DNA of 63,935 nt, the filler included, from Hausera hauseri (Eukaryota): NCBI GenBank assembly GCA_046269625.1. It is 11 parts of 11 records of this genome, joined end to end, with 100 filler letters (N's around TTAATTAATTAA, not from the genome) between each part and the next. Parts side by side here need not be neighbours in the genome. Positions count along the whole stretch, not along the records: positions 54,295 to 59,619 come from JBJURY010279063.1; 10 more parts are not named here. One strand, written 5' to 3'. Numbering within the stretch: position 1 is the first letter of the stretch; each line of letters begins with the position of its first letter. Position numbers and translations under genes: made by a program. This document shows, piece by piece, positions 18,824 to 60,769 of the stretch. The notes under the pieces are model-generated. The model had not been told where the DNA came from and did not search any database. It saw only the letters and a list, made by a program, of their open reading frames with translations.

Positions 18824-20788
18824 TCATTTACGCGGTGCAGACATCTGAAAATCATTCAGATCGTAACCTTTCTGCAGAAGTAATTGTCGAAATACTTCCG
18901 GATCATGTTTCTCCAGGGTGGACGTAATAAGTCTAACAGCTAAAGATCGCATACAAGGAATGCAACAACAGCCACAAGTCACCAAAATTGCAATAAAAAT
19001 AGACAAAGACACTACCAAAGATATAATCACTTGTCTCCAAGGGCCAAAAACTTTCAAGAGCCAATCCTCAAATTTGTTGTCAATACCAGAATGACTTTGC
19101 ATCTCATTAGAGAGTGTCCTAAGACCTTCTAATGCTCTAGTGACCTTTCCATCAGGGGCGGTGTTGTTTGGGATGAAACTACAACAAAGATCTCCAAACA
19201 TACTACAAACACCTCCTTTTTCTGCCAACAACATTTCAAGAGCCATTCTGTTCTGCACTGCCATCAGAGACGTAGGAGCCAATTGTTCAGCCAATCCCTC
19301 TACAGCATCTCTGGTGAGATTAGACAAACGCATAACATTATAATGTATATAATTTATTCTGTCAACATTTTTGTGTGGGAGAACAGGGAAAATCTGTGAA
19401 ATAATCGGCAAATGCTCAAAACCTGCTGCAATCTGATTAACTAATTTGTGTTCATTTGGTACACCACGGGAAACTCCTATCGCATCAATGTAAGTAGGTG
19501 AACCTACCGTGGGATCAAAGTTATGTGTAGACCTCTTTGACCTAGACGTAGTAGTGGTGAAATTCAACTGCTCTAGTTTAGGGCCTATCAGTGTAAGAGG
19601 GGCAGCTAATCGCACCAGGGCGCAAAGTCCATCGGTGTTGTCCAAGATGCGAGTTAGCAGCCTTTTGTCACCACAAAAATAATATAGCCCTGATCTGACC
19701 AAAGGGCCAATCACAGTCCTTTCACCTCTCCTAGTATCAACTACAATAGTGTGATTGCACCAGGTTTGATCAATCATTCCAACATTCACCTTAGCATTAG
19801 AAGAGATAAAATTGAAACAGAAATAATCATGTCGTTTAACTGCTTGAAAAGGACCTGCCTTGGTATTATTAGCAGCCAGAGGGAATACCTCACCCAAAGT
19901 AGCACAATTAGCATTTACCGGTATTCTAGTCAAGCTTAACATACACTCAAAACCCTAAGTATCCTCAGGGATCAGGGGTGCAGGTTCAATATACAACGCA
20001 GGACGCGCAGCTGCACATGCTATGCATTCCGACAGCGAGGCTTGTCTTGCAGCCTCCGCTAACCATTCCAACCATATATTGGTCTCACTGTAACCAGTAG
20101 ACATTGCAATCACCTGGGTGGGAGTCAAAGTGGTGTAATCCACATTTGCTAGATTTGGTACAGTGTTATTATCCAACTGGAAGAGTGGTTCGTTTTCCTG
20201 GGAGGATGCGTTCGTTGGCGGGTCAATCATTTTTATAATGATTGTTCGAGAAGGGTCTCTGTGAGCGACATGAGCCTGAACAACAAAGTACAATGCATCT
20301 GCCTGTGGAGAGTTGCCATAAAAAGTTGTGAGCAAATTTATGGACAACAGAAGATTATTCAAGCCGCTACTATTACCCTTTGCTAAGGTAAATCCATGCT
20401 TCCACCATTGGTAGCGAAGGGGGACCCATGATCCTGTATACAGCACGATGCTACTCCATATGCAGGTGGAACAATGGAAACTAGGGTGGCACGGACACAT
20501 GTAATAATCTACATTGTGACCTATTCTACTGTCTGAACACTCAAATAATTCACAAATGGGCAATGACAAGGTAGAGGTGGTTCCTCTGACATAAGATACT
20601 GTAAGCATCTGTTGGCCATAATAATCCTTATCATTTAGGGCCACCTGAAGAGCTCTGCTCGATCTATGAAGATTACAATCCCTTCCCCCAGGAATAACAC
20701 AAACATATTCTAGGAGAAAAATCGAAGACACCACAGTCACAACAATCATCCCAACTCCCAGAAAGACCTTCCTATCTGGCCACCACAT
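18824..20788 (-). pseudogene. env: Retroviral envelope glycoprotein with one in-frame TAG (19955-19957)
   Basis: N-terminal hydrophobic segment, RSKR furin site, QNRMALEMLLAEKGGVC ISD, CSMFGDLCC, TM and CGCCCIPC; two ORFs in one frame joined by EDT*GFEC. Confidence 0.92.
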
Positions 20789-21224
20789 TTTTGTTTGGAG
20801 TAACTGGGAAAATTGCTGAGATAATAGGTATATTAAAAAAATGTTTCAAAAATATTACTAATGTAAATATCAATAAAAAATGTTTAAAAAAGATTAAAAA
20901 GTTTAAAAAATATTAAAAATTGTATGTCAATAAAATGTTAGTACATTAAAATGTGCCACACATACTCAGAGGCATTCCTCTGGGGTGCTCAGGGATATTG
21001 AATCCTTCCTATGTCCCTGAGTTTTCTTCATGAAATGTGAGACTCTAAATATGTAAGTGTTTTCATCGGTTTTAGGTGTCTGTACTATGTGTGAATATTC
21101 CAGCACCAAGTGACCCTATAAAACTTAGTCCTTCTGGGCCGGCACTCAACTATACTTGGCTGCTTTGGTCTAACAAGACATTCAAGTTCAAGTTACGATT
21201 TCTTTAGTTGTTCTGGTCCGGCAT

Positions 21225-21728
21225 TCAGCTCCTTCCAGGCTCACGAGCTGGTGCACACTGGCTCCAGTGATACCACGTTTCTCCTTTTCCTCTCAACCGG
21301 ACTGCATGAGAGGTTCTCTCCATCACCTGAAATGGACCTGTCCACCTGGGTTCCTGCCACTTCCTCTTAACGACCCTCAGCAACACCCACTCAGCTGTGG
21401 GTAAGGCAGGGTCCTCGGGCAGACCCTGTTTCTCGTGGACCTGCTGAGTAAAGTTAGACACCAAGGCTTTTAACTCATGAAAGTATACCTTGTGGTCCAA
21501 CTTACGGTCCCCCTCATTTGGCAGAGAGCACGCATTCGGTCCAGGAAACGTGCGACCTGTGGTTAACTCATAGGGAGAGAAGCCAGTACCATTATTAACA
21601 GAATTTCTTACAGTCATTAATGCAATAGGTAAAGCATCTACCCAATTTAATTTTGTCTGTGCACAGATTTTACTCAATTTTTGTTTTATATTTTGATTCA
21701 TTCTTTCAACTTTACCCTGTGATTGAGG
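21225..21728 (-). CDS. pol: Retroviral integrase, C-terminal part
   Basis: PQSQGKVERMNQNIK, SPYELTTGR, PRWTGPFQV, WYHWSQC. Confidence 0.9.
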   Translation of the reverse strand, partial: PQSQGKVERMNQNIKQKLSKICAQTKLNWVDALPIALMTVRNSVNNGTGFSPYELTTGRTFPGPNACSLPNEGDRKLDHKVYFHELKALVSNFTQQVHEKQGLPEDPALPTAEWVLLRVVKRKWQEPRWTGPFQVMERTSHAVRLRGKGETWYHWSQCAPAREPGRS

Positions 21729-30235: not shown

Positions 30236-30335
30236 NNNNNNNNNNNNNNNNNNNNNNNNNNNNNNNNNNNNNNNNNNNNTTAATTAATTAANNNNNNNNN
30301 NNNNNNNNNNNNNNNNNNNNNNNNNNNNNNNNNNN

Positions 30336-33300
30336 TCATTCTTTCGTTTGTGCTTTCGTTCGATCTTTCTTTCTTTCTTTCGTTGGGTCGTTCATTCGAT
30401 CCTCCGTTCGTTCTCTCGTTCTTTCGTTCGACCGTTCCTTCCTTCCTTCCTTCGTTTGTTCGTTCGTTCTTTCTTTCGTTCCTTCGTTCGTTCGTTCATT
30501 CTTTCGTTTGTGCTTTCGTTCGATCTTTCTTTCTTTCTTTCGTTGGGTCGTTCATTCGATCCTCCGTTCGTTTTCTCGTTCTTTCGTTCGACCGTTCCTT
30601 CCTTCCTTCCTTCGTTTGTTCGTTCGTTCTTTATTTCGTTCATTCATTCCTTCGTTCCTTCATTCGTTTGTTCGTTCGCTCGTTCTTTTGCTTCTTCCTT
30701 CTTTCCTTCGCTTTTTCGTTCATTCATTCATTCCTTCGTTCTTTCTTTCGTTCATACATTCTTTCCTTCTTTCCTTCGTTCTTTCGTACCTTCGTTCGTT
30801 CATTCTTTCGTTCGTTCTTTCGTTCGGACAATTGGTTGATCGTTCGTTCGTTCGTTTCTTCATTCGATCATGCGTTCTTTCTTTTGTTCGATCTTTCGTT
30901 CCTTCTTTCCTTCGTTCCTTCATTTTTTCATTCTTTCCTTCGTTCTTTCTTTCATTCTTTCCTTCGTTCCTTTGTTCCCTCATTCAATCCTTCTTTCTTT
31001 CTTTCGTTCGTTTTTTCCTTCGTTCTTTCTTACGTTCGTTCGTTCATTCTTTCGTTCCTTCTTTCGTTTGTACACTTATTTGCTCGTTCGTTCGTTCGTT
31101 TCTTCATTCGTTCGTTCTTTCTTTCTTTCGATCTTTCGTTCCTTCGTTCCTTCGTTCCTTCCTTCATTCATTCATTCGCTCTTTCATCCTTTCTTTCATT
31201 CTTTCCTTTATTCATTCGATCGTTCGTTCTTTCGTTCGATCTTTCGTTTTTTCATTTATTAGTTCGTTCTTTCGCTCGTTCTTTCGTTCGTTCATTCTTT
31301 CGTTCGTTCTTTCGTTCGTTCATTCATTCGTTCGNNNNNNNNNNNNNNNNNNNNNNNNNNNNNNNNNNNNNNNNNNNNNNNNNNNNNNNNNNNNNNNNNN
31401 NNNNNNNNNNNNNNNNNNNNNNNNNNNNNNNNNNTCGTTCGGTCGCTCATTCGATCCTTCGTTCGTTCGTTCGTTCTTTCGTTCGACTATTCCTTCCTTC
31501 GTTCGTTTCTTTTTTCTTTCATTCGTTCGTTCGTTCGTTCGTTATTCGTTCCTTCCTTTGTTCTTTCGTTCCTTCATTCGCTCATTCTTTCGTTCCTTCT
31601 TTGTTTCATTCTTTCCTTTGTTCTTTTGCTCGTTCGTTCGTCGTTTTTTCGATGATTCTTTCGTTCATTCGTTCTTTCTTTCCTTCGCTCCTTCGTTCCT
31701 TCATTCGTTCACTCGTTTCTTCGTTCGTTCATTCATTCCTTCGTTCTTTCTTTCGTTCGTACGTTCGTTCCTTCGATCTTTCGTTCTTTCGTACGTTTTT
31801 TCGTTCATTTCTTCGTTCATTCTTTCTTTCGTACAATTGTTTGCTCGTTCGTTCGTTCGTTTGTTCATTCGTTCATGTGTTCTTCCTTTCGTTCGATCTT
31901 TCGTTCCTTCTTTCATTCGTTCCTTCATTCGTTCATTTATACGTTTGGTCGTCCTTTCTTTTATTCTTTCCTTCGTTCATTCGATCGTTTGTTCTTTCGC
32001 TCGTTCGTTCTTTCGCTCTTTCGTTCGTTCTTTCTTTCTTTCTTTCGTTGGGTCGTTCATTCGATCGTACGTTCGTTCTCTCGTCCTTTCGTCCGACCGT
32101 TCCTTCCTTCCTTCGTTCGTTCGTTCGTTCGTTCGTTCCTTCGATCCGTTGTTCGTTCCTTCGTTCGTTCATTTATTCCTTCGATCTTTCTTTCTTTCGT
32201 ACGTTCTTTCGTTCATTCCTTCGTTCATTCTTTCTTTCGTACAATTGTTTGCTCGTTCGTTCGTTCGTTTGTTCATTCGTTCCTGTGTTCTTTCTTTCGT
32301 TCGATATTTCGTTCCTTCTTTCCTTCGTTCCTTCATTCGTTCATTCGCACGTTCGGTCGTCCTTTCTTTTATTCTTTCCTTCGTTCATTCGATCGTTTGT
32401 TCTTTCGCTCCTTCGTTCTTTCGCTCTTTCGTTCGTTCGCTTGTTCGTTCCTTTTTTCGTTCCTTCATTCGTTTATTCGTTCGTTCGTCCTTTCTTTGAA
32501 TCGTTCCTTCGTTCATTCGATCGTTCGTTTTTTCTTTCGTTCGTTCTTTCGCTCGTTCGTTCGTGCGTTTGTTCGTTCGTTTGTTCGTTCCTTCGTTCGT
32601 TCTTTTGATCGTTCGTTCGTGCTTGGGTTCGTTTGTTCGTTCCTTCCTTCGTTCCTTTGATCGTTCTTTCTTTAATTCTTTCCTTCATTCGTTCATTCTT
32701 TCGTTCCTTCTTTCTTTCATTCTTTCCTTCGTTCTTTCGTTCGTTCGTTCTTTCTTTCGTTCGTTGTTTCGTTTCTTCGTTCGGTCGTTCCTTCATTCGT
32801 TTGTACGCTCGTTCGTTCGTTCTTTCTTTCGTTCCTTCATTCCTTCGTTCCTTCATTCGTTTGTTCGTTCGCTTGTTTTTTCGCTTCTTCCTTCTTTCCT
32901 TCGCTTTTTCGTTCATTCGTTCATTCCTTCGTTCTTTCTTTCGTTCGTACTTTCGTTCGTTCATTCTTTCGTTCGTTCTTTCGTTCGGACATTTGTTTGA
33001 TCGTTCGCTCGTTCGTTTGTTCATTCGATTATGCGTTCTTTCTTTCGTTCGATCTTTCGTTCCTTCTTTCCTTCGTTCCTTCATTCTTTCATTCTTTCGT
33101 TCGTTCTTTCTTTCATTCTTTCCTTCGTTCTTTCGTTCCTTCCTTTGTTTCTTCGTTCGCTCATTCATTCCTTCTTTCTTTCTTTCGTTCGTTTGTTCCT
33201 TCTTTCTTTCTTACGTTCGTTCGTTCATTCCTTCGTTCTTCCTTTCGTTCGTACATTTGTTTGCTCGTTCGTTCGTTCGTTTCTTCATTCGTTCGTTCTT

Positions 33301-34697
33301 TCTTTCGTTCGATCTTTCGTTCCTTCGTTCCTTCCTTCACTCATTCATTTGTTCATTCATCCTTTCTTTCATTCTTTCCTTTGTTCATTCGATCGTTCGT
33401 TTTTTCGTTCGTTCTTTCGTTTGTTCATTCTTTCGTTCGTTCTTTCGTTCCTTCATTCATTAGTTCGTTCTTTCGCTCGTTCTTTCGTTCGTTCATTCTT
33501 TCGTTCGTTCTTTCGTTCGTTCATTCATTCGTTCGTTCCTTCGTACGATCTTTCTTTCATTCCTCCTTTCCTTCGGTTGTTCGTTTGTTCTATTGTTCTT
33601 TCGATCGTTCGTTCGTTCATTCTTTCGTTCTTTCTTTCGTTCGATCTTTCTTTCTTCCTTTCGTTCGGTCGCTCATTCGATCCTTCGTTCGTTCGTTCGT
33701 TCTTTCGTTCGACTATTCCTTCCTTCGTTCGTTTCTTCTTTCTTTCATTCGTTCGTTCGTTCGTTCGTTATTCGTTCCTTCCTTTGTTCTTTCGTTCCTT
33801 CATTCGTTCATTCTTTCGTTCCTTCTTTGTTTCATTCTTTCCTTCGTTCTTTAGCTCGTTTGTTCGTCGTTCTTTCGATCCTTGTTTCGTTCTTTCGTTC
33901 TTTCTTTCCTTCGCTCCTTCGATTCTTCTTTCCTTCGTTCGTTCCTTCGATTGTTCTTTCGTTCCTTCTTTCGATCCGTCGTTCGTTCCTTCGTTCCTTC
34001 ATCCGTTCATTCATTTCTTCGTTCTTTCCTTCATTCTTTCGTTTTTTCGTTCTTTCCTTTGTTCGTTCTTTCATTGCTTCTTTCGTTCTATCGTTCTTTG
34101 TTCATTCGTTGGTTCTTTCGGTCGCTCATTCGGTCTTTCCTTCGTTCGTACTTTCGTTCGTTCCTTCGCTCGGTCATTAAATCGATCGTTGTTTCGTTCG
34201 CTCATTCGATCCGTTGTTCGTTCCTTCGTTCGTTTATTCATTTCTTCGTTTTTTCTTTCATTCGTTCGTTCGTTCGTTCTTTCGTTCGTTCGTTCGTTCG
34301 TTCTTTCCTTCGCTTCTTCGTTCGTTCTTTCATTCATTTTTTTGTTCCTTCTTTCGTACGATCTTTCTTTCATTCCTTCTTTCGTTCGTTTGTTCGTTTG
34401 TTCTATCGTTCTTTCGTTTGTTCATTTGTTCGTTCTTTATTTTCTTCTTTCATTCGTTCGTTCTTTCATTCGTTTTTTCATTCGTTTGTTAGTTCCTTCC
34501 TTCTTTAGTTTATTCGTTAGTTCATTTGTTCCTTCTTTCGGTCTTTCTTTCTTGTGTTCTTTCTTTCTTTTGTTCAATCGTTCTTTCCTTATTTCGTTCG
34601 TTCATTCGTTCTTTCGTTCTTTCCTTCCTTCATTCTTACTTTCGTTCCTTCGTTCATTTGTTCCTTTTTCCGGTCTTTCTATGGTTCGTTCGTTCAA
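30336..34697 (+). repeat. Degenerate (TTCG/TTCN)n tetranucleotide satellite with higher-order duplications
   Basis: Continuous TTCG/TTCT/TTCC/TTCA units; 158-bp near-exact tandem duplication at the start; internal 100-N scaffold gap 31335-31434. Confidence 0.95.
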
Positions 34698-34967
34698 ATG
34701 TGCATTGATGTGAACGTCAACGGTCCGATTTTTGTCGGTGGAGTACGTGTACCGTTATTCCGTGCAATTTATCCGGAAAGGAACAAGTATACTGCTTGCG
34801 ACAATATCATTGTCAACCTCGATAATCCAATGTACCTACCTGTGGGATCTACATCTCCAAACAATGTTGAAGTGAATATCCGATGTGACGCGGGCTACCT
34901 CATTGAATTTTCGTACGGTACCACAACCAGTCTAACTCTTCATTTCCGTCAAATCCAACATGATTGA
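34698..34967 (+). CDS. Polinton/Maverick (adintovirus) minor capsid (penton) protein, C-terminal fragment
   Basis: VGGVRVPLFRAI..NPMYLPV....NNVEVNIRCDAG..I.F..G.TSLTLHFR matches the Polinton penton C-terminal signature. Confidence 0.78.
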   Translation: MCIDVNVNGPIFVGGVRVPLFRAIYPERNKYTACDNIIVNLDNPMYLPVGSTSPNNVEVNIRCDAGYLIEFSYGTTTSLTLHFRQIQHD

Positions 34968-35117
34968 TTCCGAAATCGTTTCCATTTACAGTAAACCCCA
35001 GCAGGGCGGTGAACTGCCGTATTTCGTTGGTAAGCAGTACGGCTCTGGATGGTTGCGTACATTGGCACGTTTAGCATTTCCGGTGTTGAAGCGTATTGGA
35101 GCCGTGGCAGCAAAAAC
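34960..35117 (+). CDS. Polinton/adintovirus virion core or membrane-active protein (QxGG / QxGxG type), truncated
   Basis: QQGGELPYFVGKQYGSGWLRTLARLAFPVLK, motif typical of the ORF following penton; 8-nt ATGATTGA overlap. Confidence 0.7.
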
Positions 35118-54194: not shown

Positions 54195-55567
54195 NNNNNN
54201 NNNNNNNNNNNNNNNNNNNNNNNNNNNNNNNNNNNNNNTTAATTAATTAANNNNNNNNNNNNNNNNNNNNNNNNNNNNNNNNNNNNNNNNNNNNTGTCTT
54301 CATGTAAATATGTTTTATGCTATTTGTGAGTTGATAAATTTACGTTTGTATAACTTTATTGTTCATACATTAAACAGATTATATTTTTAGAATTCCGTGT
54401 TGGTGAATAATTAATTACAATAATTAAATAAGCGCATAATAAAATTGGATAAATTGGTCGACCAGGTCAAAACTACCTGACGACCGTCCGAGTAATAATA
54501 AATAATTCAATAAAATAATAAACATTAGCAAGTAATTGGTAAATAATAGCAGACGCGTCACACATTACTTACTGATTTCTAGGTAAGAAATTAAATTCCA
54601 TCTCTATCAAAAACCTTCTTAACGAATAGATAAAGATAAAAATTTCATTTGTTCTCCATTAATTAACTAGAACCAAATCTCTTCAAGACAATTAGTGGAC
54701 ATTCAACATTAAATGCCGAGACTGTGTTCAATCCTCGTAAATTTAAGATGTGAGAGACTTATCAACGTGGCGTGAAACGTAAATAAATCTACGGAGAGAA
54801 CAAAATTAATCGTCTTTACTGAGGCGCGCTTAGGTAGGAATGCGGAGAGAGATAACGTCAACCTTACCTAACTATATTGTCAGTAATGTGTCGGGGTCGT
54901 TCGTAGGTTAGTTAACAATTACTTACTAATGGTTATACTCCTATACTTTATTGAAATTTAGTTGGGCCGCCGACAAGTAGGGGACCTGGTCGACTATTCC
55001 TTTAGTTAGTCTTTATTTAATTAGACTCTTTACTTGAAAGACAACAAGAACGGATGATGATCAAAAACAATATGTAATTAAAACAAATGCGATACGTTTA
55101 TAAATGTTGATCATGAAAATACTGACAATTATTATACGTTATAAGACTTTACCACACAAACACAAAAGAATGAAAAATATAACTTACAGTAATTCTGATT
55201 ACACGTAGCACGAAAATAGTTTTTTGTTGTTGTACATGAAAAATGAGCAGCTATATATAGTGTAATTTCCATGTGCAGGGTCCAAAGAAAATAGGTCGAA
55301 TTGACCCAAAAATAATGGTGCACTTCAATAAATTCCGTTTATGATACATAAAAAAATAAAACACAATTTTTCACATAAATTAATAACTGGCAGATAATGT
55401 TATGGTTATTTTTAAATGGTCAGCATAATCAATTTGACCATTTATTTTTAGCTGATCACGATTTTCACATAAGTCAATAATATGAGTTCAGGGTTCAAAA
55501 TTTGTTCAATATTTGTCATCGAAATTGGTAAATCGGTCAATTGATGAGGGGCCGAAAGAAATTGCCC

Positions 55568-56787
55568 CTAATTTCCATTTAACGAACGGTAAATTGTTTT
55601 GCCGGACTGGGATTTATATCTAAGGGCGTCAGGGGTATAGATCTCCCCATCCATGAGAACTTCTTCGTCGATTTCTAACTTTCGTTTCTTTGAGACTGCA
55701 TCGTGTGGTCTTTTTAAGACATTATCAGAAACCGTGGCTTCGTCGATTATGTCGTCATTCCAACGTAAGGTTTTGTAGATGGCTTAGTAACATTGTGCCA
55801 AGGCCATGCTGCGGAGTGGCATATTACGAGTGTCGTAAAACTTTCGTGCCAACTCTTTGGAATTTCCAATTTATACTTCGGAATAACCTCTTCGTGATAT
55901 AATATATCACGAATTCCGGCTATTCTACGAAGTGGACATTTGAGATGATTCTGTATCATCTCAAGCACACCGGCTCCGATCACCATCTTGTCATTTAATA
56001 TGGCGGAGATCTTTTGGTAGAAGGTGTTAGAATCCATCTGGTTGGTTGTATTTGCTTCCGCGATTCCTGTCATGTGGGAGTCATAGTTATTAATTCTTTG
56101 TCTGGGAGTTATTATTGAGTAGAATAAGGTATCACCATCAACGTTAATAATTGAACATTCGATAGGAGTTAACTGATTAAACTGGTCGTAAACTAAACTG
56201 ACTGCCACTATGACCATATCTTCATTATTGAGAGTTTTCATCCGTCGGTAGGACTTTTCTTTATATTTTAGATAATCTGGCTCAACCAGATTAAAGCATT
56301 TTCCTTGTATTGGGGTAGACCAGTAATTTTCTTCCTTGATCACCTCGACTCCGATCATAATTCGATTATCCAAAGAACGAATCTTTAGAGAGTTTCTTTT
56401 AACAAATTTAAATTCCAGAGAAATGCCATGGTTCGGATCCAGATTGATTAGATCACCATACTGTTTGGTTCTAGAATCTTTTGTTTTGACCTGAAATCGA
56501 CCGATAATATCATAAATATTAATGTTTATGAATTTGTCAGGTAACTTTATTAAGTCCGATAAGAAAAAGGAGGTCCCTTTTGTCAATTGAATAAGAGCCA
56601 ATGTTCTATTGCTCATACTATACCCTTTTAGGTTGTTGGGTATCTGCTGTACCTGGGAATAGTTAAGGCTGTATGTATTGTTATTCATGATCACGTAGTA
56701 TGGATTGGAAGGGTTGGCATTTATCAAGTGATTTTTCGCATTGTCATACCAATACTTGCTTCTCTGTAGAGTTTGTATTTCGAACAT
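55568..56787 (-). pseudogene. Accessory ORF: unknown N-domain, degenerate REX4/ISG20-like DEDDh exonuclease, acidic NLS tail
   Basis: ECSIINVDGDTLFYSIITPRQRINNYDSHMTGI, ILNDKMVIG, IRDI; after a frameshift near 55860 KELARKFY..RSMALAQCY*AIYK..KRPHDAVSKKRKLE. Confidence 0.72.
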
Positions 56788-56974
56788 AACTTAAAATATA
56801 ATAATCAACATTGATTGATTTGAAAATCTTAAACGCAACACAACGGTTATCAAACATGGTTTATTGGTAATCGTCGTGGTAGTACAATTATTGTTTTGCT
56901 TAGAGGTAACTTTATGACATTTAGTTATCTCATTTAGAAGGGTTGCGTAAACCGCAATCCCTAGTGGTAATTGT

Positions 56975-58380
56975 CAACTTGGATTATCTGTATCCAAGAC
57001 ATTTGGTATACGTCGCATGTCTATTCGAACCCAATTTGGTCTGCGACGTTTCCTCATACTCATAATCATTTTTATAATGAGGGCTAATATAATTATGAAA
57101 ATTATGGGGCTTACTGTACTGATTATAATTAATTCTAATGGAGAATAGGTATAACGTGACCTTGGTAGAGGTGGATTTCTACTCGGTTTTGTACTTATTT
57201 TATTTTCTACTCTGTTGTATTTTGGCTTTTGTCGAAGCTGTTAATAATTTAGTAGAGACCATCGCGTTATCATCACTATATAGTTGTAATGTAACTATAT
57301 ATTTAGAATTTGGGCTTAAATCTGCACATGGTACTATAGCATCATCGGGCGTAATTATACCTTTGGCTACAATCCTTTGGCCTAGTTTACAAGCAAATTT
57401 AACTTTATAAAAATTTAAATCGGATTGAATAGCTATAACTAGGGAGGTCTACGTAGAATATATTGTGGCTTTTTCTAAGATAGAACGTTTATAACGATGG
57501 GATAGTGCATGAGGTTGGATAAGAACAGTCATTTCTCCGGCATTTATTTCTGTTTTATTAAATAATGTAGATATCGCAAGTGGTGTCGTGACACTTAATT
57601 TCTGGTCATCTTCATATTCAATGACATTTTTGAATGGAACATATGTTCTGGGTCCTTGGTAAGTTAAAATTTTGATGCTCTCTAATTCCTTGCGTACTAG
57701 CACAAATTTCAAGTCGTAGGTGCTTCCTCGTAAGGCGTTACAACAAACTCGGAGATGTTTATCATTCAATTGACATTTTATGGGTGTCTTTTGCTTCTTG
57801 TGAACATCAGTAAGTGTTATACATATCACTCTATTCTCTTTCAGTTCTATCATTGTTTTAACTTCGATACAAGTTCGTCCGCTTTTAAATTCTAGCGGCC
57901 TAACGGTGACTTGAGTTACTATTATCTCATCGAGTTTGGTTACGTTTATTGTTTGTCTATTAGGAACTTGTATGATACCTCGGCACTTGGTATATTGCCA
58001 CTGATAACTGCTTTTATGCCTTTTGATCATGGTATAGTATATGAGGCAATTACCAGAATCGTCTACTACACAATCTGTTACGTTTCACCAATACGTAAGA
58101 CCGCAATCATACTTTCGTTGTTTCGGGTTTCTTTCGTAATCATGCTCGTGGATTGCCTGAATTTCTATCATATACTGGTTGGGTAGTCTGTTAAATACCA
58201 TAAATCTGATACATCTTTGGCCTTTCTTCGTATGGGTTATCTCATGATAGACATTTTGCTTCTAACTGTTTTCTAATGTTTCATTTGAAGGGAATGTTTT
58301 CATCCATGGGTCAAATGATTTTGTCGTTTGGGTGAATAGGCCAGGTATTCCTATGAGGACCAATAAGCAAAACCACCCAA
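56975..58380 (-). pseudogene. Type-I membrane protein with FN3-like domains in the env position (3 stops, 2 frameshifts)
   Basis: Signal WFCLLVLIGIPGLFTQT; RYKR furin site; ST*TSLVI...CADLSPNSKYIVTLQ FN3 pattern; TM LELIIISTVSPIIFIIILALIIKMIMSM then RKRRR. Confidence 0.65.
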
Positions 58381-59340
58381 TGACTTCGCAATTTGGAGTT
58401 TTATAACTTTTCTTTTTATCACTGATGGCCCGTACTAACTCCTGTTCGTCATTTCTCAATTCGCTCTCCTTGGGTGCCGGTTTGCACCTGTTAACATGTA
58501 CTTTATTTTGTGTATTGTTTTTCTTTAATACCTGGATGAGCATTCGTCTTTCTTCATTAGATATATTACAATCTCGTAAATTTTCCTCCCAATTAATGCG
58601 AATAATTTTCTTATCTTTATTTATTTTTCCTTTCAATTTCTTCGCCATTAATTTCTCGATCTCCTCTACTTCCGAGATTATTGAGTTAATCGTTTCCTTC
58701 GGTATTTCTTCGACATCCATGGCTTGCCCTAATCTCATATTTCTCTTCAACCACTTCTCCTTGGCTCCCGTATTACAAATTCTTAAGTGAATCTTTCCAT
58801 CTCTTACCTTGTCTATGTGTGGTGCGATTAGAATATTGTATTTCTCCATTATCTGTGGGAATGGTTCAAAATGTACATGGTTCATCAAAGATGTATAATT
58901 TATTCTACCGGGTACTACTATCTCAGAACGTGGTGGAATCAAGACATTTTAATTAATGACACTGATCCTTCATATCGATTTTCAAATGTTTTGAGCTGGC
59001 CACTTTTGACATCTATGTACATGTTATCCAATTGCTGTAATACGTAACATTCGATTAATATTTCGAAGTTAAGTTCTTGGCCACTCTTATGATATGGTTT
59101 ATTATCTGGTCACGAATTTTAATTTTCGCATCCAAGACTGTTTTTATCTCTTCCTCCATACCGAACGCTCCAACGTTAATTAACGTTCCTTCCGGCTTTC
59201 GTAATTTTTTATTAATTCTTTAGGCAATTGACTTTTTCCCATAATTGTAGTAATGGATCCCGTGTCTATTAAAGCTGTTAAGGGATATCCATCTACTTCA
59301 ATCTCTATTTCCAGTCTGAGTACCAGCTGGGGTCCGTTCT
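58380..59340 (-). pseudogene. pol: Gypsy pol remnant: protease and linker joined directly to integrase C-terminus
   Basis: LEIEIEVDGYPLTALIDTGSITTIM; IPPRSEIVV..LRICN..LG; ERRMLIQVLKKN then KVHVNRCKP. Confidence 0.78.
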
Positions 59341-60769
59341 TCTCGTTTGTTTTACACGTAGTCTTACGACTATATAATGCGGGATTTTCTTCGTAATCCC
59401 TCTTTAAACGTAGTACTTAATACGTGAGGTACATTCCTCCATGTTGTACATATTGGAGAGCGACGGACATAGTATTTGTTCGTTATAGATTTGTCCGTTA
59501 TATTCATCTGCCGGATCTAACTGAAATAAGTCAGTAACCAATTTCCGTTTATACTTCTGTTTCTGATATCTTAAGGAAATTCTTCTAAATTTTGTTAAAT
59601 ATCTATCGCTTCTCCGTTTNNNNNNNNNNNNNNNNNNNNNNNNNNNNNNNNNNNNNNNNNNNNTTAATTAATTAANNNNNNNNNNNNNNNNNNNNNNNNN
59701 NNNNNNNNNNNNNNNNNNNTTGTACCCGCATTGTTCCATGTTTTGTTTTATTTACTTAAAGAAATATAGTTTTGTCTGTTTAGTTATAATACTTTGCACC
59801 TATTGAAAATATATTTAACACATTTTTATAACATTAATAGTCCATCTCACTGAGTTCTTTTTTTGGGTGGGGGTGGGAGTGGAAACACAAAATATGCGGG
59901 GAGGTCACCAATTAAATTTCATGTTTCGGTTCTGATAGTTACGTGCCCTTTACTCGGTTCTGATATTCGGATATATCCGGCTCCTTCTAGGTGGGTTCCT
60001 TCGAAGTGAGTACTCGGTTCTGTTCGGATCCTCCAAAACCGAGTATTTGCCCAGGTCTAGTGTTCACTGTTAACATAACAAATTTCCAAGATAACCAATT
60101 TGTAGTAATCTTTCATAAACTTTTTTATATGTAGATATCTTAAAAAGCGTTGGTTGTGTTCATTTAGGAAAATAATGTTACATCTTCTATAAAATGTCAG
60201 CTGTTAAAATAATATCAGCATTTTTAGTACAATTTGATATGTTCTCTGTAATATTTTAGAAATGTTTGTGATTGCTCAGTTCTTAATGAATAACAGAGCT
60301 TTGAACCTTTAGTAAAAATATTACACATTGTGCCCCTTGGGACGAAAAAAAGAAGTAAATTGCCTCCCTTATAATCAAAATAAATTGTTGTCTCCATTAC
60401 TTGAGTTGCTAGCCAGTTCTTGTAACAGATTCCGTCTATTCACAATCATATATGTTCTTCGCTGTTTTACTACGTTCATTGGGCTCCTTGTTGAACTGTC
60501 AAAATAGGTTCCGTATGCATATGAGACAGAGCAACGGTATACCATTTGGGGTTAAAGCTGCAGGGGCCGTCACCTGGGGCTTAGTATTTCTAGGGGGTCA
60601 AACTTTCAAAACATACAACTTAAAACAAAATTAGAAATGGCTCAGATGTAACAGAGCCGTACGGTAACAGGATGATGATGAGGAGCGAGCGCAGAAGAAG
60701 AAGAAATGAAAGCACACACTGAAGAGTAAAGACTACACAGAGAATAAAATATAACTCATACGACTGCAT

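Follow-up and report, generated by a model that had tools for sequence, protein, structure and literature searches.

A catalytically dead ISG20/REX4-type DEDDh fusion at the 3′ end of a Burro-like Ty3/gypsy element of Hausera hauseri, with two predicted routes of expression

The element copy and its features

The stretch of DNA analysed here (the window; 63,935 nucleotides, filler included) consists of short contigs chained by N spacers and comes from the H. hauseri assembly, which comprises 869 Mb in 909,086 contigs. One contig, JBJURY010279063.1 (positions 54295-59619), carries on its minus strand the decayed 3′ part of a Burro-like Ty3/gypsy element and, within it, the reading frame referred to here as ORF2; because of the N spacers, the adjoining contigs are uninformative about this copy. 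All features of the element given below lie on the minus strand.

Upstream of ORF2, positions 58514..59604 hold a polyprotein remnant with a post-glycoprotein segment, an aspartic protease (LTALIDTGS) and then a further segment that is presumably dUTPase-like and that had no Pfam match, interspersed with stops and frame changes. Near 58514-58528, the protease remnant is fused straight to the post-integrase region, and RT, RNase H and integrase core are absent from this copy. The C-terminal part of the polyprotein (56977..58528), made up of a beta-rich domain, a hydrophobic segment and a basic tail ending in NPS, is broken by three stops and one frame change. Its stop codon, a TGA followed by CAA TTA (56968..56976), lies in a leaky-type context and in frame with ORF2, and the linker behind it contains three hairpins (56940..56960, 56907..56927 and 56839..56878). 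Directly before ORF2, a predicted branch point, pyrimidine tract and splice acceptor AG (56791-56790) occupy positions 56790..56808; the window copy has AAG as its acceptor, overlapping with an in-frame TAA (56791-56793).

The ORF2 frame extends over 55747-56790 (347 codons, ATG at 56787). Its N-domain (residues 1-153; 56329..56787) is predicted to adopt an AlkB/2OG-oxygenase-like double-stranded beta-helix, without the conserved HxD/E...H, and is followed by a DEDDh-fold domain of the ISG20/REX4 type (55760..56220). In the window copy of the latter, A/S take the place of the ExoI D/E (56197-56205), M that of the ExoII D (55957-55959) and L/L that of the ExoIII H/D (55814-55816 and 55799-55801). 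The REX4/ISG20-spaced scaffold quoted in the original prediction can be read in the minus-strand frame (SIINVDGDTLFY..ITPRQRINNYDSHMTGI, ILNDKMVIG, IRD), and the frameshifted tail described there is likewise real: the frame changes between 55864 and 55858, and the tail contains KELARKF, PLRSMALA and KRPHDAVSKKRK (55679-55714). The last part of ORF2 (55568..55759) comprises an acidic stretch, a basic cluster with a monopartite NLS-like KKRK (within 55679-55714) and a conserved short beta-rich end (EEVLMDGEIY..LRYKS.SGK). Two stops, a TAA in the tail (55784-55786) and the TAA directly upstream of the ATG, were called, as was the frame change, against an intact relative. With its RT-integrase region deleted, a frameshift and two stops, the window copy is dead.

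The element ends in a 3′ LTR (54725..55539, the 5′ boundary being approximate) that includes a TATA-like sequence (55252-55259) and a splice-donor-like GTAAGT (55182-55187). A second perfect donor-like AG/GTAAG sits in an inverted repeat of U5 (54862-54890) and is kept in five other LTRs across subfamilies. The expected site of the polypurine tract (55540-55575; L032:8325-8360) holds a small hairpin ending in a C-run (TTCGGGRCAA...CCCCC) and no obvious tract.

Elsewhere in the window, a retroviral TLV_coat envelope (E 5e-10) follows an MLV-type integrase C-terminus (18824-21728), the rest of the assembly looking invertebrate. On one short contig (21829-23793), THOC5-like and TCP-1 chaperonin frames, both free of introns, adjoin each other and are probably captured retrocopies, and about 5 kb of a T/C-rich 8/12-nt tandem repeat (30284-35100) yields many spurious long ORFs.

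A 3′ accessory gene of a gag-env-pol element family

At least 117 ORF2 matches were scored in the same genome from 5,676 candidates, with 54-69% identity when the window itself is excepted. The organisation of the family is best seen on contig C511016, where a single frame of 3,279 codons is followed by ORF2 and then by an LTR. This frame encodes, in order, a Ty3 capsid (gag), zf-CCHC, a Bcl-2-like domain, a Monjiviricetes fusion glycoprotein (E 4e-91), PR, RT, RNase H and IN; the Bcl-2 match is weak, with E-values of 1.6e-4 to 0.03, below the curated cut-off. The LTR pair measures 815 bp and matches at 93.6%, and the PBS reads TGGTGCCGTGACCCGGG. ORF2 thus belongs to a Burro-like gag-env-pol Ty3/gypsy element as its 3′ accessory gene, and its position behind the polyprotein and before the LTR confirms that it is encoded by a retroelement, as had been proposed. 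The element is about 13 kb long and not giant, and five pieces of the polyprotein gave no Pfam match to MATH, BIR or ankyrin domains.

Three further aspects of the family deserve mention. First, the end of the polyprotein (window 56977-58528; L009:1-1314; L030:1-1329) forms a conserved, cysteine-containing, beta-rich domain of 400 aa for which there is no Pfam match; the hydrophobic segment at the C-terminus is likely transmembrane, which would make this a second membrane protein besides the glycoprotein. Second, the gag frame is open for about 35 codons 5′ of its first ATG (L031:2023-2190, L033, L037, L012, L021, L040), and directly behind the PBS these loci share a start-like motif (ATT/ATA-ACx/GCT-ACx-AGR, i.e. 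I-T/A-T-R-x-G, with A at -3), a possible non-AUG start of the polyprotein. Third, contigs with gag after ORF2 and one LTR probably reflect not tandem elements but an LTR across which the assembly has collapsed, since the end and start of C33336 read as consecutive protein with no shared word.

A DEDDh fold whose catalytic residues have been replaced under selection

Searched as single sequences, neither the window ORF nor seven intact relatives (six genome copies and P0001) matched Pfam RNase_T. Profiles were more telling: one built from 22 close sequences found ISG20L2 (E 2e-5), and one of 35 sequences found it again at E 1.7e-25. The model of the C-domain (pLDDT 93) superimposes on ISG20 with Z 19.2 and an rmsd of 2.5 over 155 aligned residues, the next match having Z 14.6, and Foldseek is concordant with an ISG20 fold (E 1e-10). 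Profile search and model together bear out the REX4/ISG20-like identity that had been read from residue spacing.

The catalytic register was fixed by alignment with catalytically intact homologues. Intact ORF2 copies, defined by an open frame of ≥385 aa, make up 47 of 82 distinct matched loci and are 50-96% identical (median 59%); the remaining 35 are broken or cut by contig ends. Among the 47, ExoI D has become A in 46 (L in one) and ExoI E has become N in 46 (T in one), ExoII D is M in 46 (T in one), ExoIII H is L in 46 (F in one) and ExoIII D is L throughout, so that the five DEDDh positions are devoid of catalytic residues in every copy. The replacement of the ExoI motif by AVS (A195, S197; AVN in relatives) had thus been recognised correctly, whereas the proposed ExoIII register was one residue off: the H and D positions are taken by the two leucines of LRSMAL, although neither register has an H or a D.

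Selection was gauged from pairs of copies with 0.1<dS<1, which are not independent of each other. The median dN/dS comes to 0.051 in the N-domain (13 pairs), again to 0.051 in the DEDDh domain (33 pairs) and to 0.15 in the tail (75 pairs). In ORF2, 115 positions are near-invariant, mostly basic and aromatic residues. Because the replacements are found in every intact copy and dN/dS is about 0.05, we regard the catalytic loss as selected rather than as decay, and the DEDDh domain as a selected pseudo-nuclease with high confidence. The alignment of homologous copies thereby answers the question raised at the outset: loss of the acidic residues is conserved and under purifying selection.

An N-domain predicted to be an AlkB-like beta-helix

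The N-terminal region had been described as an unrecognised domain of about 190 aa. Its size needs correction, to about 153 residues plus a linker, and a structural model now suggests an AlkB-like beta-helix; with respect to sequence profiles, it is still without a match. Pfam gave no AlkB or cupin homology, nor did PDB sequences at E<=10, and the scores of all ESM Atlas features for this domain stayed below 0.8. The model of full-length ORF2 has a mean pLDDT of 58.5, with blocks of 61-88 over residues 1-150. The N-domain model matches ALKBH6 (Z 13.5, rmsd 3.1, 148 aligned) and ALKBH7 (12.4), followed by Ofd2, ALKBH5, prolyl hydroxylases (up to 11.6) and small cupins (about 10). The prediction is therefore a double-stranded beta-helix of the 2OG-oxygenase kind, with a specific AlkB identity not proven: the assignment derives from one model built from 22 close sequences, and prolyl hydroxylases lie within 2 Z units.

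By sequence, the HxD/E...H iron triad of such enzymes is not conserved. HxD/E occurs in 20 of the 47 intact copies, 17 times at one site near residue 34 that the family as a whole does not share, and in 6 of 30 distant homologues, and H20 is the sole near-invariant His of the domain. An N-domain without a conserved iron triad, taken together with the loss of DEDDh, would make ORF2 a double pseudo-enzyme, a prediction that depends on the modelled fold.

Distant homologues with and without the catalytic set

A full HMMER search returned 39 proteins, of which 30 distant ones were aligned and 8 short or cellular-type ones left out; word-indexed homologue searches matched only P0001 and P0015, and viral contigs searched with P0010 gave no match. 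In the alignment, the distant homologues are about 17-23% identical to P0002. Seventeen retain the full DEDDh set and one that is truncated has three of three, while 12 have one catalytic residue or none, with differing replacements. The N-domain, too, has common motifs, namely IPNxLK, a His (26/30; Tyr/Phe in the ORF2 family) and a Glu (25/30). It had been held that intact relatives retaining DEDDh residues would mark the loss as mere decay. Distant relatives do retain them (17/30), but all 47 intact family members lack them, a distribution that indicates lineage-specific inactivation and not decay. A tree of the DEDDh domain was built from 35 rows, without the window copy, P0023, P0030 and five short hits; in it, the branches of the dead forms are long and weakly supported. 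A search of the H. hauseri genome with PF00929, which is of low sensitivity, gave two matches and no catalytically intact retroelement copy. One of the two, L051 (G000:C12:41230-44697), is a bacterial dnaQ-like gene of very high AT content that lies on a long contig, meaning that the assembly includes an endosymbiont or contaminant.

Genomic context is available for seven loci of a single metagenome, each of which has its DEDDh motifs intact. Two of them lie behind polyproteins, and the one that was scanned has the same glycoprotein-PR-RT-IN order; the others have RING and TRAF-MATH genes next to them or precede a gag. The distant two-domain homologues with context are thus 3′ accessory genes of such elements as well. 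The loci L094-L099 contain strings of 3′ accessory genes (RING, TRAF-MATH, coiled-coil, DEDDh fusion), mostly directly after a TTTAG/TGTAG acceptor, and L094 has a duplicated protease. P0008 and P0035 add one distant dead homologue with a C-terminal RING finger and another protein with four tandem REX4-like domains, just one of which has the full catalytic set.

Probable expression from a spliced RNA

Several signals around ORF2 suggest how it is expressed. A phase-1 AG after a pyrimidine tract lies just 5′ of ORF2 in 75 of 78 copies, preceded in 68 of 78 by a YTRAY branch motif, mostly at exactly 16 nt; the criteria for these sites were loose and used without a shuffled control. AG acceptors were also found by eye 5′ of distant homologues, at six of the seven metagenome loci. 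No ATG occurs within eight codons of the acceptor in 43 of 75 copies (a few of which were scored at an upstream AG), and that about half of the copies have no ATG there predicts an upstream exon supplying one in phase 1.

A candidate for such an exon lies in the LTR. In 17 of 26 copies without an ATG of their own, the LTR contains a predicted mini-exon consisting of an ATG and 4 or 7 bases followed by GTRAG, always in phase 1 and, where a TATA box was found, roughly 60-125 nt behind it. Among the rest of the 26, one has a donor and no LTR ATG, but an ATG of its own after the acceptor, and eight lack a donor that matches this pattern. Conversely, 13 of 16 copies with their own ATG have the donor, yet none of these 13 has a phase-1 ATG in the LTR (four have ATGs in other phases). 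These counts exclude one short copy per group, and the contrast falls largely between two subfamilies and thus represents few independent events. On the strength of these signals, ORF2 is very probably expressed from a spliced RNA. Splicing from the LTR donor to the ORF2 acceptor would remove the whole 12-kb gag-env-pol region as an intron.

Spliced-leader trans-splicing was considered as another source of the start codon. Flatworm spliced leaders end in AUG, and leaders of this kind misfit a phase-1 acceptor, which is why this candidate was rejected.

Probable expression by stop-codon readthrough

The second set of signals lies at the end of the polyprotein, which could be located in 65 of 82 loci. 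A stop is present there in 61 of them (60 TGA, 1 TAA), followed by CGG in 39, CGA in 16, CAA-TTA in 5 and TGA in 1. In the literature on leaky stop codons, UGA-CGG/CUA constitutes the type II and stop-CAR-YYA the type I context (PMC3159437). The 39 CGG and 5 CAA-TTA cases out of 61 hence conform to a published leaky context, and the family moves between both types.

Between this stop and ORF2 lies a linker of 162-216 nt. Its ORF2 frame is open in 51 of 61 loci, as against 0 and 2 of 61 for the other sense frames and 0, 10 and 0 for the antisense frames; 6 of 65 are out of frame, and in one of these the ORF is otherwise intact. An open in-frame linker is not something that splicing by itself requires. 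The linker also has a mild codon-position bias, the differences at codon positions 1/2/3 amounting to 1034/853/1165 over 87 pairs.

Three short hairpins, not one long stem, stand behind the leaky-type stop. Their 23 pairs are 96.9% paired in 25 sequences, compared with 20-38% in slid controls, and 10 pairs show two-sided changes versus 4.4 +/- 1.3 in shuffles, the structure having been derived from the same alignment that was used for the pair counts. Folding z-scores are modest (mean -1.7 in the 17 tested of 49 intact linkers). Located inside the predicted intron, the hairpins would be present only in unspliced RNA, where they may serve as a readthrough stimulator and/or as a binding site.

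Taken as a whole, stop context, open linker and hairpins make it probable that ORF2 is also produced by stop-codon readthrough. At a low level, this would yield a polyprotein-ORF2 fusion anchored in the membrane, its ORF2 part facing the cytoplasm. A word-indexed search restricted to proteins of 1524-4350 aa, and therefore weak, found no such fusion on record. The two distant loci with a polyprotein do not have this arrangement, ORF2 being out of frame in L094 and 960 nt away, with another ORF between, in L095; readthrough would accordingly be lineage-specific.

What might a predicted double pseudo-enzyme do for its element?

A classical bipartite NLS consists of two basic residues, a spacer of 10-12 and a basic cluster. 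The bipartite signal claimed for ORF2 does not survive scrutiny, as the spacer is 6 residues in the window copy, the upstream basic pair is unconserved and a bipartite-like pattern appears in only 6 of 47 intact copies. A monopartite basic cluster, on the other hand, is present in the tail of all 47. A scan of the tail in the same copies did not find a leucine-rich export signal pattern.

It is likely that ORF2 binds RNA rather than cutting it. The explanation that we favour, if tentatively, is that it acts as an RNA-binding regulator of the unspliced element genome, similar to Rev and CERV and made by splicing as well as readthrough. With a strong LTR donor and a strong 3′ acceptor, the element must still deliver unspliced RNA. 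ORF2 would be imported into the nucleus through its basic cluster, would bind RNA through the conserved basic and aromatic residues and would help the unspliced genome RNA to leave the nucleus or to survive; that export or stabilisation of this RNA is its main job is proposed with somewhat greater reserve. A precedent is the accessory protein CERV of the C. elegans element Cer1, a spliced nuclear protein that is needed for export of the genomic RNA (PMC10309623), and Exuperantia is described as binding structured RNA with a dead Exo domain (PMC5785220). Along with the universal basic cluster, the basic and aromatic residues, the origin of both folds in RNA enzymes and the intronic hairpins, these precedents are why we favour the regulator. 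The anatomy of a spliced 3′ ORF with an NLS and a 12-kb retained intron points more to the handling of unspliced RNA than to the anti-silencing or germline role originally envisaged.

A more elaborate version of the regulator, which in its entirety we consider rather speculative and on balance unlikely, posits two forms of the protein, a free nuclear Rev-like one from splicing and a membrane-tethered one from readthrough, with the same hairpins governing the choice. It would belong to an old family of AlkB-like/ISG20-REX4 fusions that is active in some lineages and switched off in others, and that has become, in this one, a double pseudo-enzyme reading the RNA of its own element.

Alternatively, the dead folds could be decoys against host defence which, by binding to RNA 3′ ends, modified bases, small RNAs or host nucleases, weaken the piRNA, RNAi or decay pathways. 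Both folds derive from enzymes acting on RNA ends or base methyl marks, and such elements do carry host-manipulating cargo (Bcl-2-like in the polyprotein; RING and TRAF-MATH beside distant homologues). Moreover, the active AlkB m6A demethylase of an orchid Gypsy element has been proposed to counter surveillance (PMC9289625), and Maelstrom and EXD1 are named as DEDD derivatives in piRNA biology (PMC5408684). A decoy by itself, however, explains neither the conserved hairpins by the acceptor nor the readthrough arrangement, and we deem it unlikely.

Less probable still is that the readthrough form is the main product, with ORF2 tethered under the membrane by the transmembrane segment of the polyprotein for particle assembly, RNA packaging or as a scaffold. 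The leaky-type stop, the linker open in 51 of 61 loci with its mild codon-position bias and the covarying hairpins would all fit; the strong splice signals, the phase-matched mini-exon and the conserved NLS-like cluster argue instead for a free nuclear protein, and distant relatives lack the in-frame arrangement.

We also doubt strongly that ORF2 cleaves nucleic acids with an active site that has moved elsewhere, the situation reported for Maelstrom, which has no DEDD and is nevertheless called an endoribonuclease (PMC7968707). Acidic and His residues that might form such a site (for example D201, E210, D236, H238, D252, D294 and H298) are indeed near-invariant in the 47 copies. Yet all five canonical positions are hydrophobic or neutral, a conserved ECHC-like zinc motif is missing, and D252 and D294 look structural since they are conserved in catalytically intact homologues too.

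Finally, a captured host exonuclease that is simply decaying would account for the broken window copy, the 35 of 82 loci broken or cut by contig ends and the catalytic residues kept in many distant relatives, but the same replacements fixed in 47 intact copies down to 50% identity at a dN/dS of about 0.05 leave almost no room for this idea, which is true of the window copy only and is rejected for the family.

Relation to known elements and DEDD proteins

Burro/GYPSM1 elements of planarians are gypsy-like and have the gag-env-pol order of the C511016 element (PMC6431247). With these and with the errantiviruses of the GAG-ENV-POL HSV/gB type (PMC13524379), the family shares a single polyprotein with Gag, BCL2-like, a mononegavirus-type glycoprotein between gag and pol, PR, RT, RNase H and IN, as well as accessory ORFs and TRAF-MATH and RING genes, the latter two in its distant relatives. 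At about 13 kb, it is far smaller than Burro (>30 kb) and lacks a MATH/BIR/ankyrin match in the polyprotein. The available text of the two articles mentions neither a DEDDh or AlkB-like accessory ORF nor splicing to such an ORF or readthrough.

Both kinds of domain are already known from LTR elements, as DEDD ORFs in bdelloids and as AlkB ORFs in an orchid Gypsy element (PMC5408684, PMC9289625). In the bdelloid Juno/Vesta LTR elements and Terminons, a DEDD-superfamily protein is likewise encoded by a 3′ ORF of a gypsy-like element; that ORF3 is, however, an RNase D-like DEDDy protein with intact catalytic residues (DEED), whereas ORF2 is of the ISG20/REX4 DEDDh type, fused to a predicted beta-helix and dead (PMC5408684). 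The Phalaenopsis Gypsy ORF (2-ODD) also places an AlkB-type domain on a Gypsy element, as predicted here, but is recent, recognisable and an active m6A demethylase, in contrast to an N-domain that is assigned by predicted fold, lacks the iron triad and is fused to DEDDh (PMC9289625).

With CERV and HIV Rev, ORF2 would have in common that it is an accessory protein of an LTR element, made from a (here predicted) spliced RNA and equipped with a short basic NLS, in a setting where intron-containing RNA must leave the nucleus. The folds are unrelated, and CERV has a candidate NES and a demonstrated function, whereas the tail of ORF2 has no NES pattern and its function is inferred (PMC10309623). 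Exuperantia, Egalitarian and Maelstrom likewise use a DEDD fold for RNA binding without canonical catalysis (PMC5785220, PMC7968707), but these are host proteins and structurally further away (Exu Z 10.6 versus ISG20 Z 19.2), and ORF2 has neither a SAM-like domain nor an ECHC motif. No beta-helix/DEDDh fusion, dead form or dual expression signals are described in the literature consulted, supplements, Repbase and the original Burro paper aside, which may annotate the ORF. What is new here is the pair of predicted expression routes, splicing and readthrough.

Outlook

ISG20 is a host antiviral nuclease, which makes a retroelement that carries an ISG20 fold of interest for the conflict between hosts and their elements. 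The active and dead homologues offer a natural series for studying how an enzyme changes into an RNA-binding pseudo-enzyme, and ORF2 would be an example of a single gene that uses splicing and readthrough alike. Most accessory genes of envelope-carrying invertebrate LTR elements have yet to be characterised, and export of intron-containing genomes is known for few of them, such as Cer1 with CERV. In the ORF2 family, we now have a conserved, multi-copy candidate for this task.
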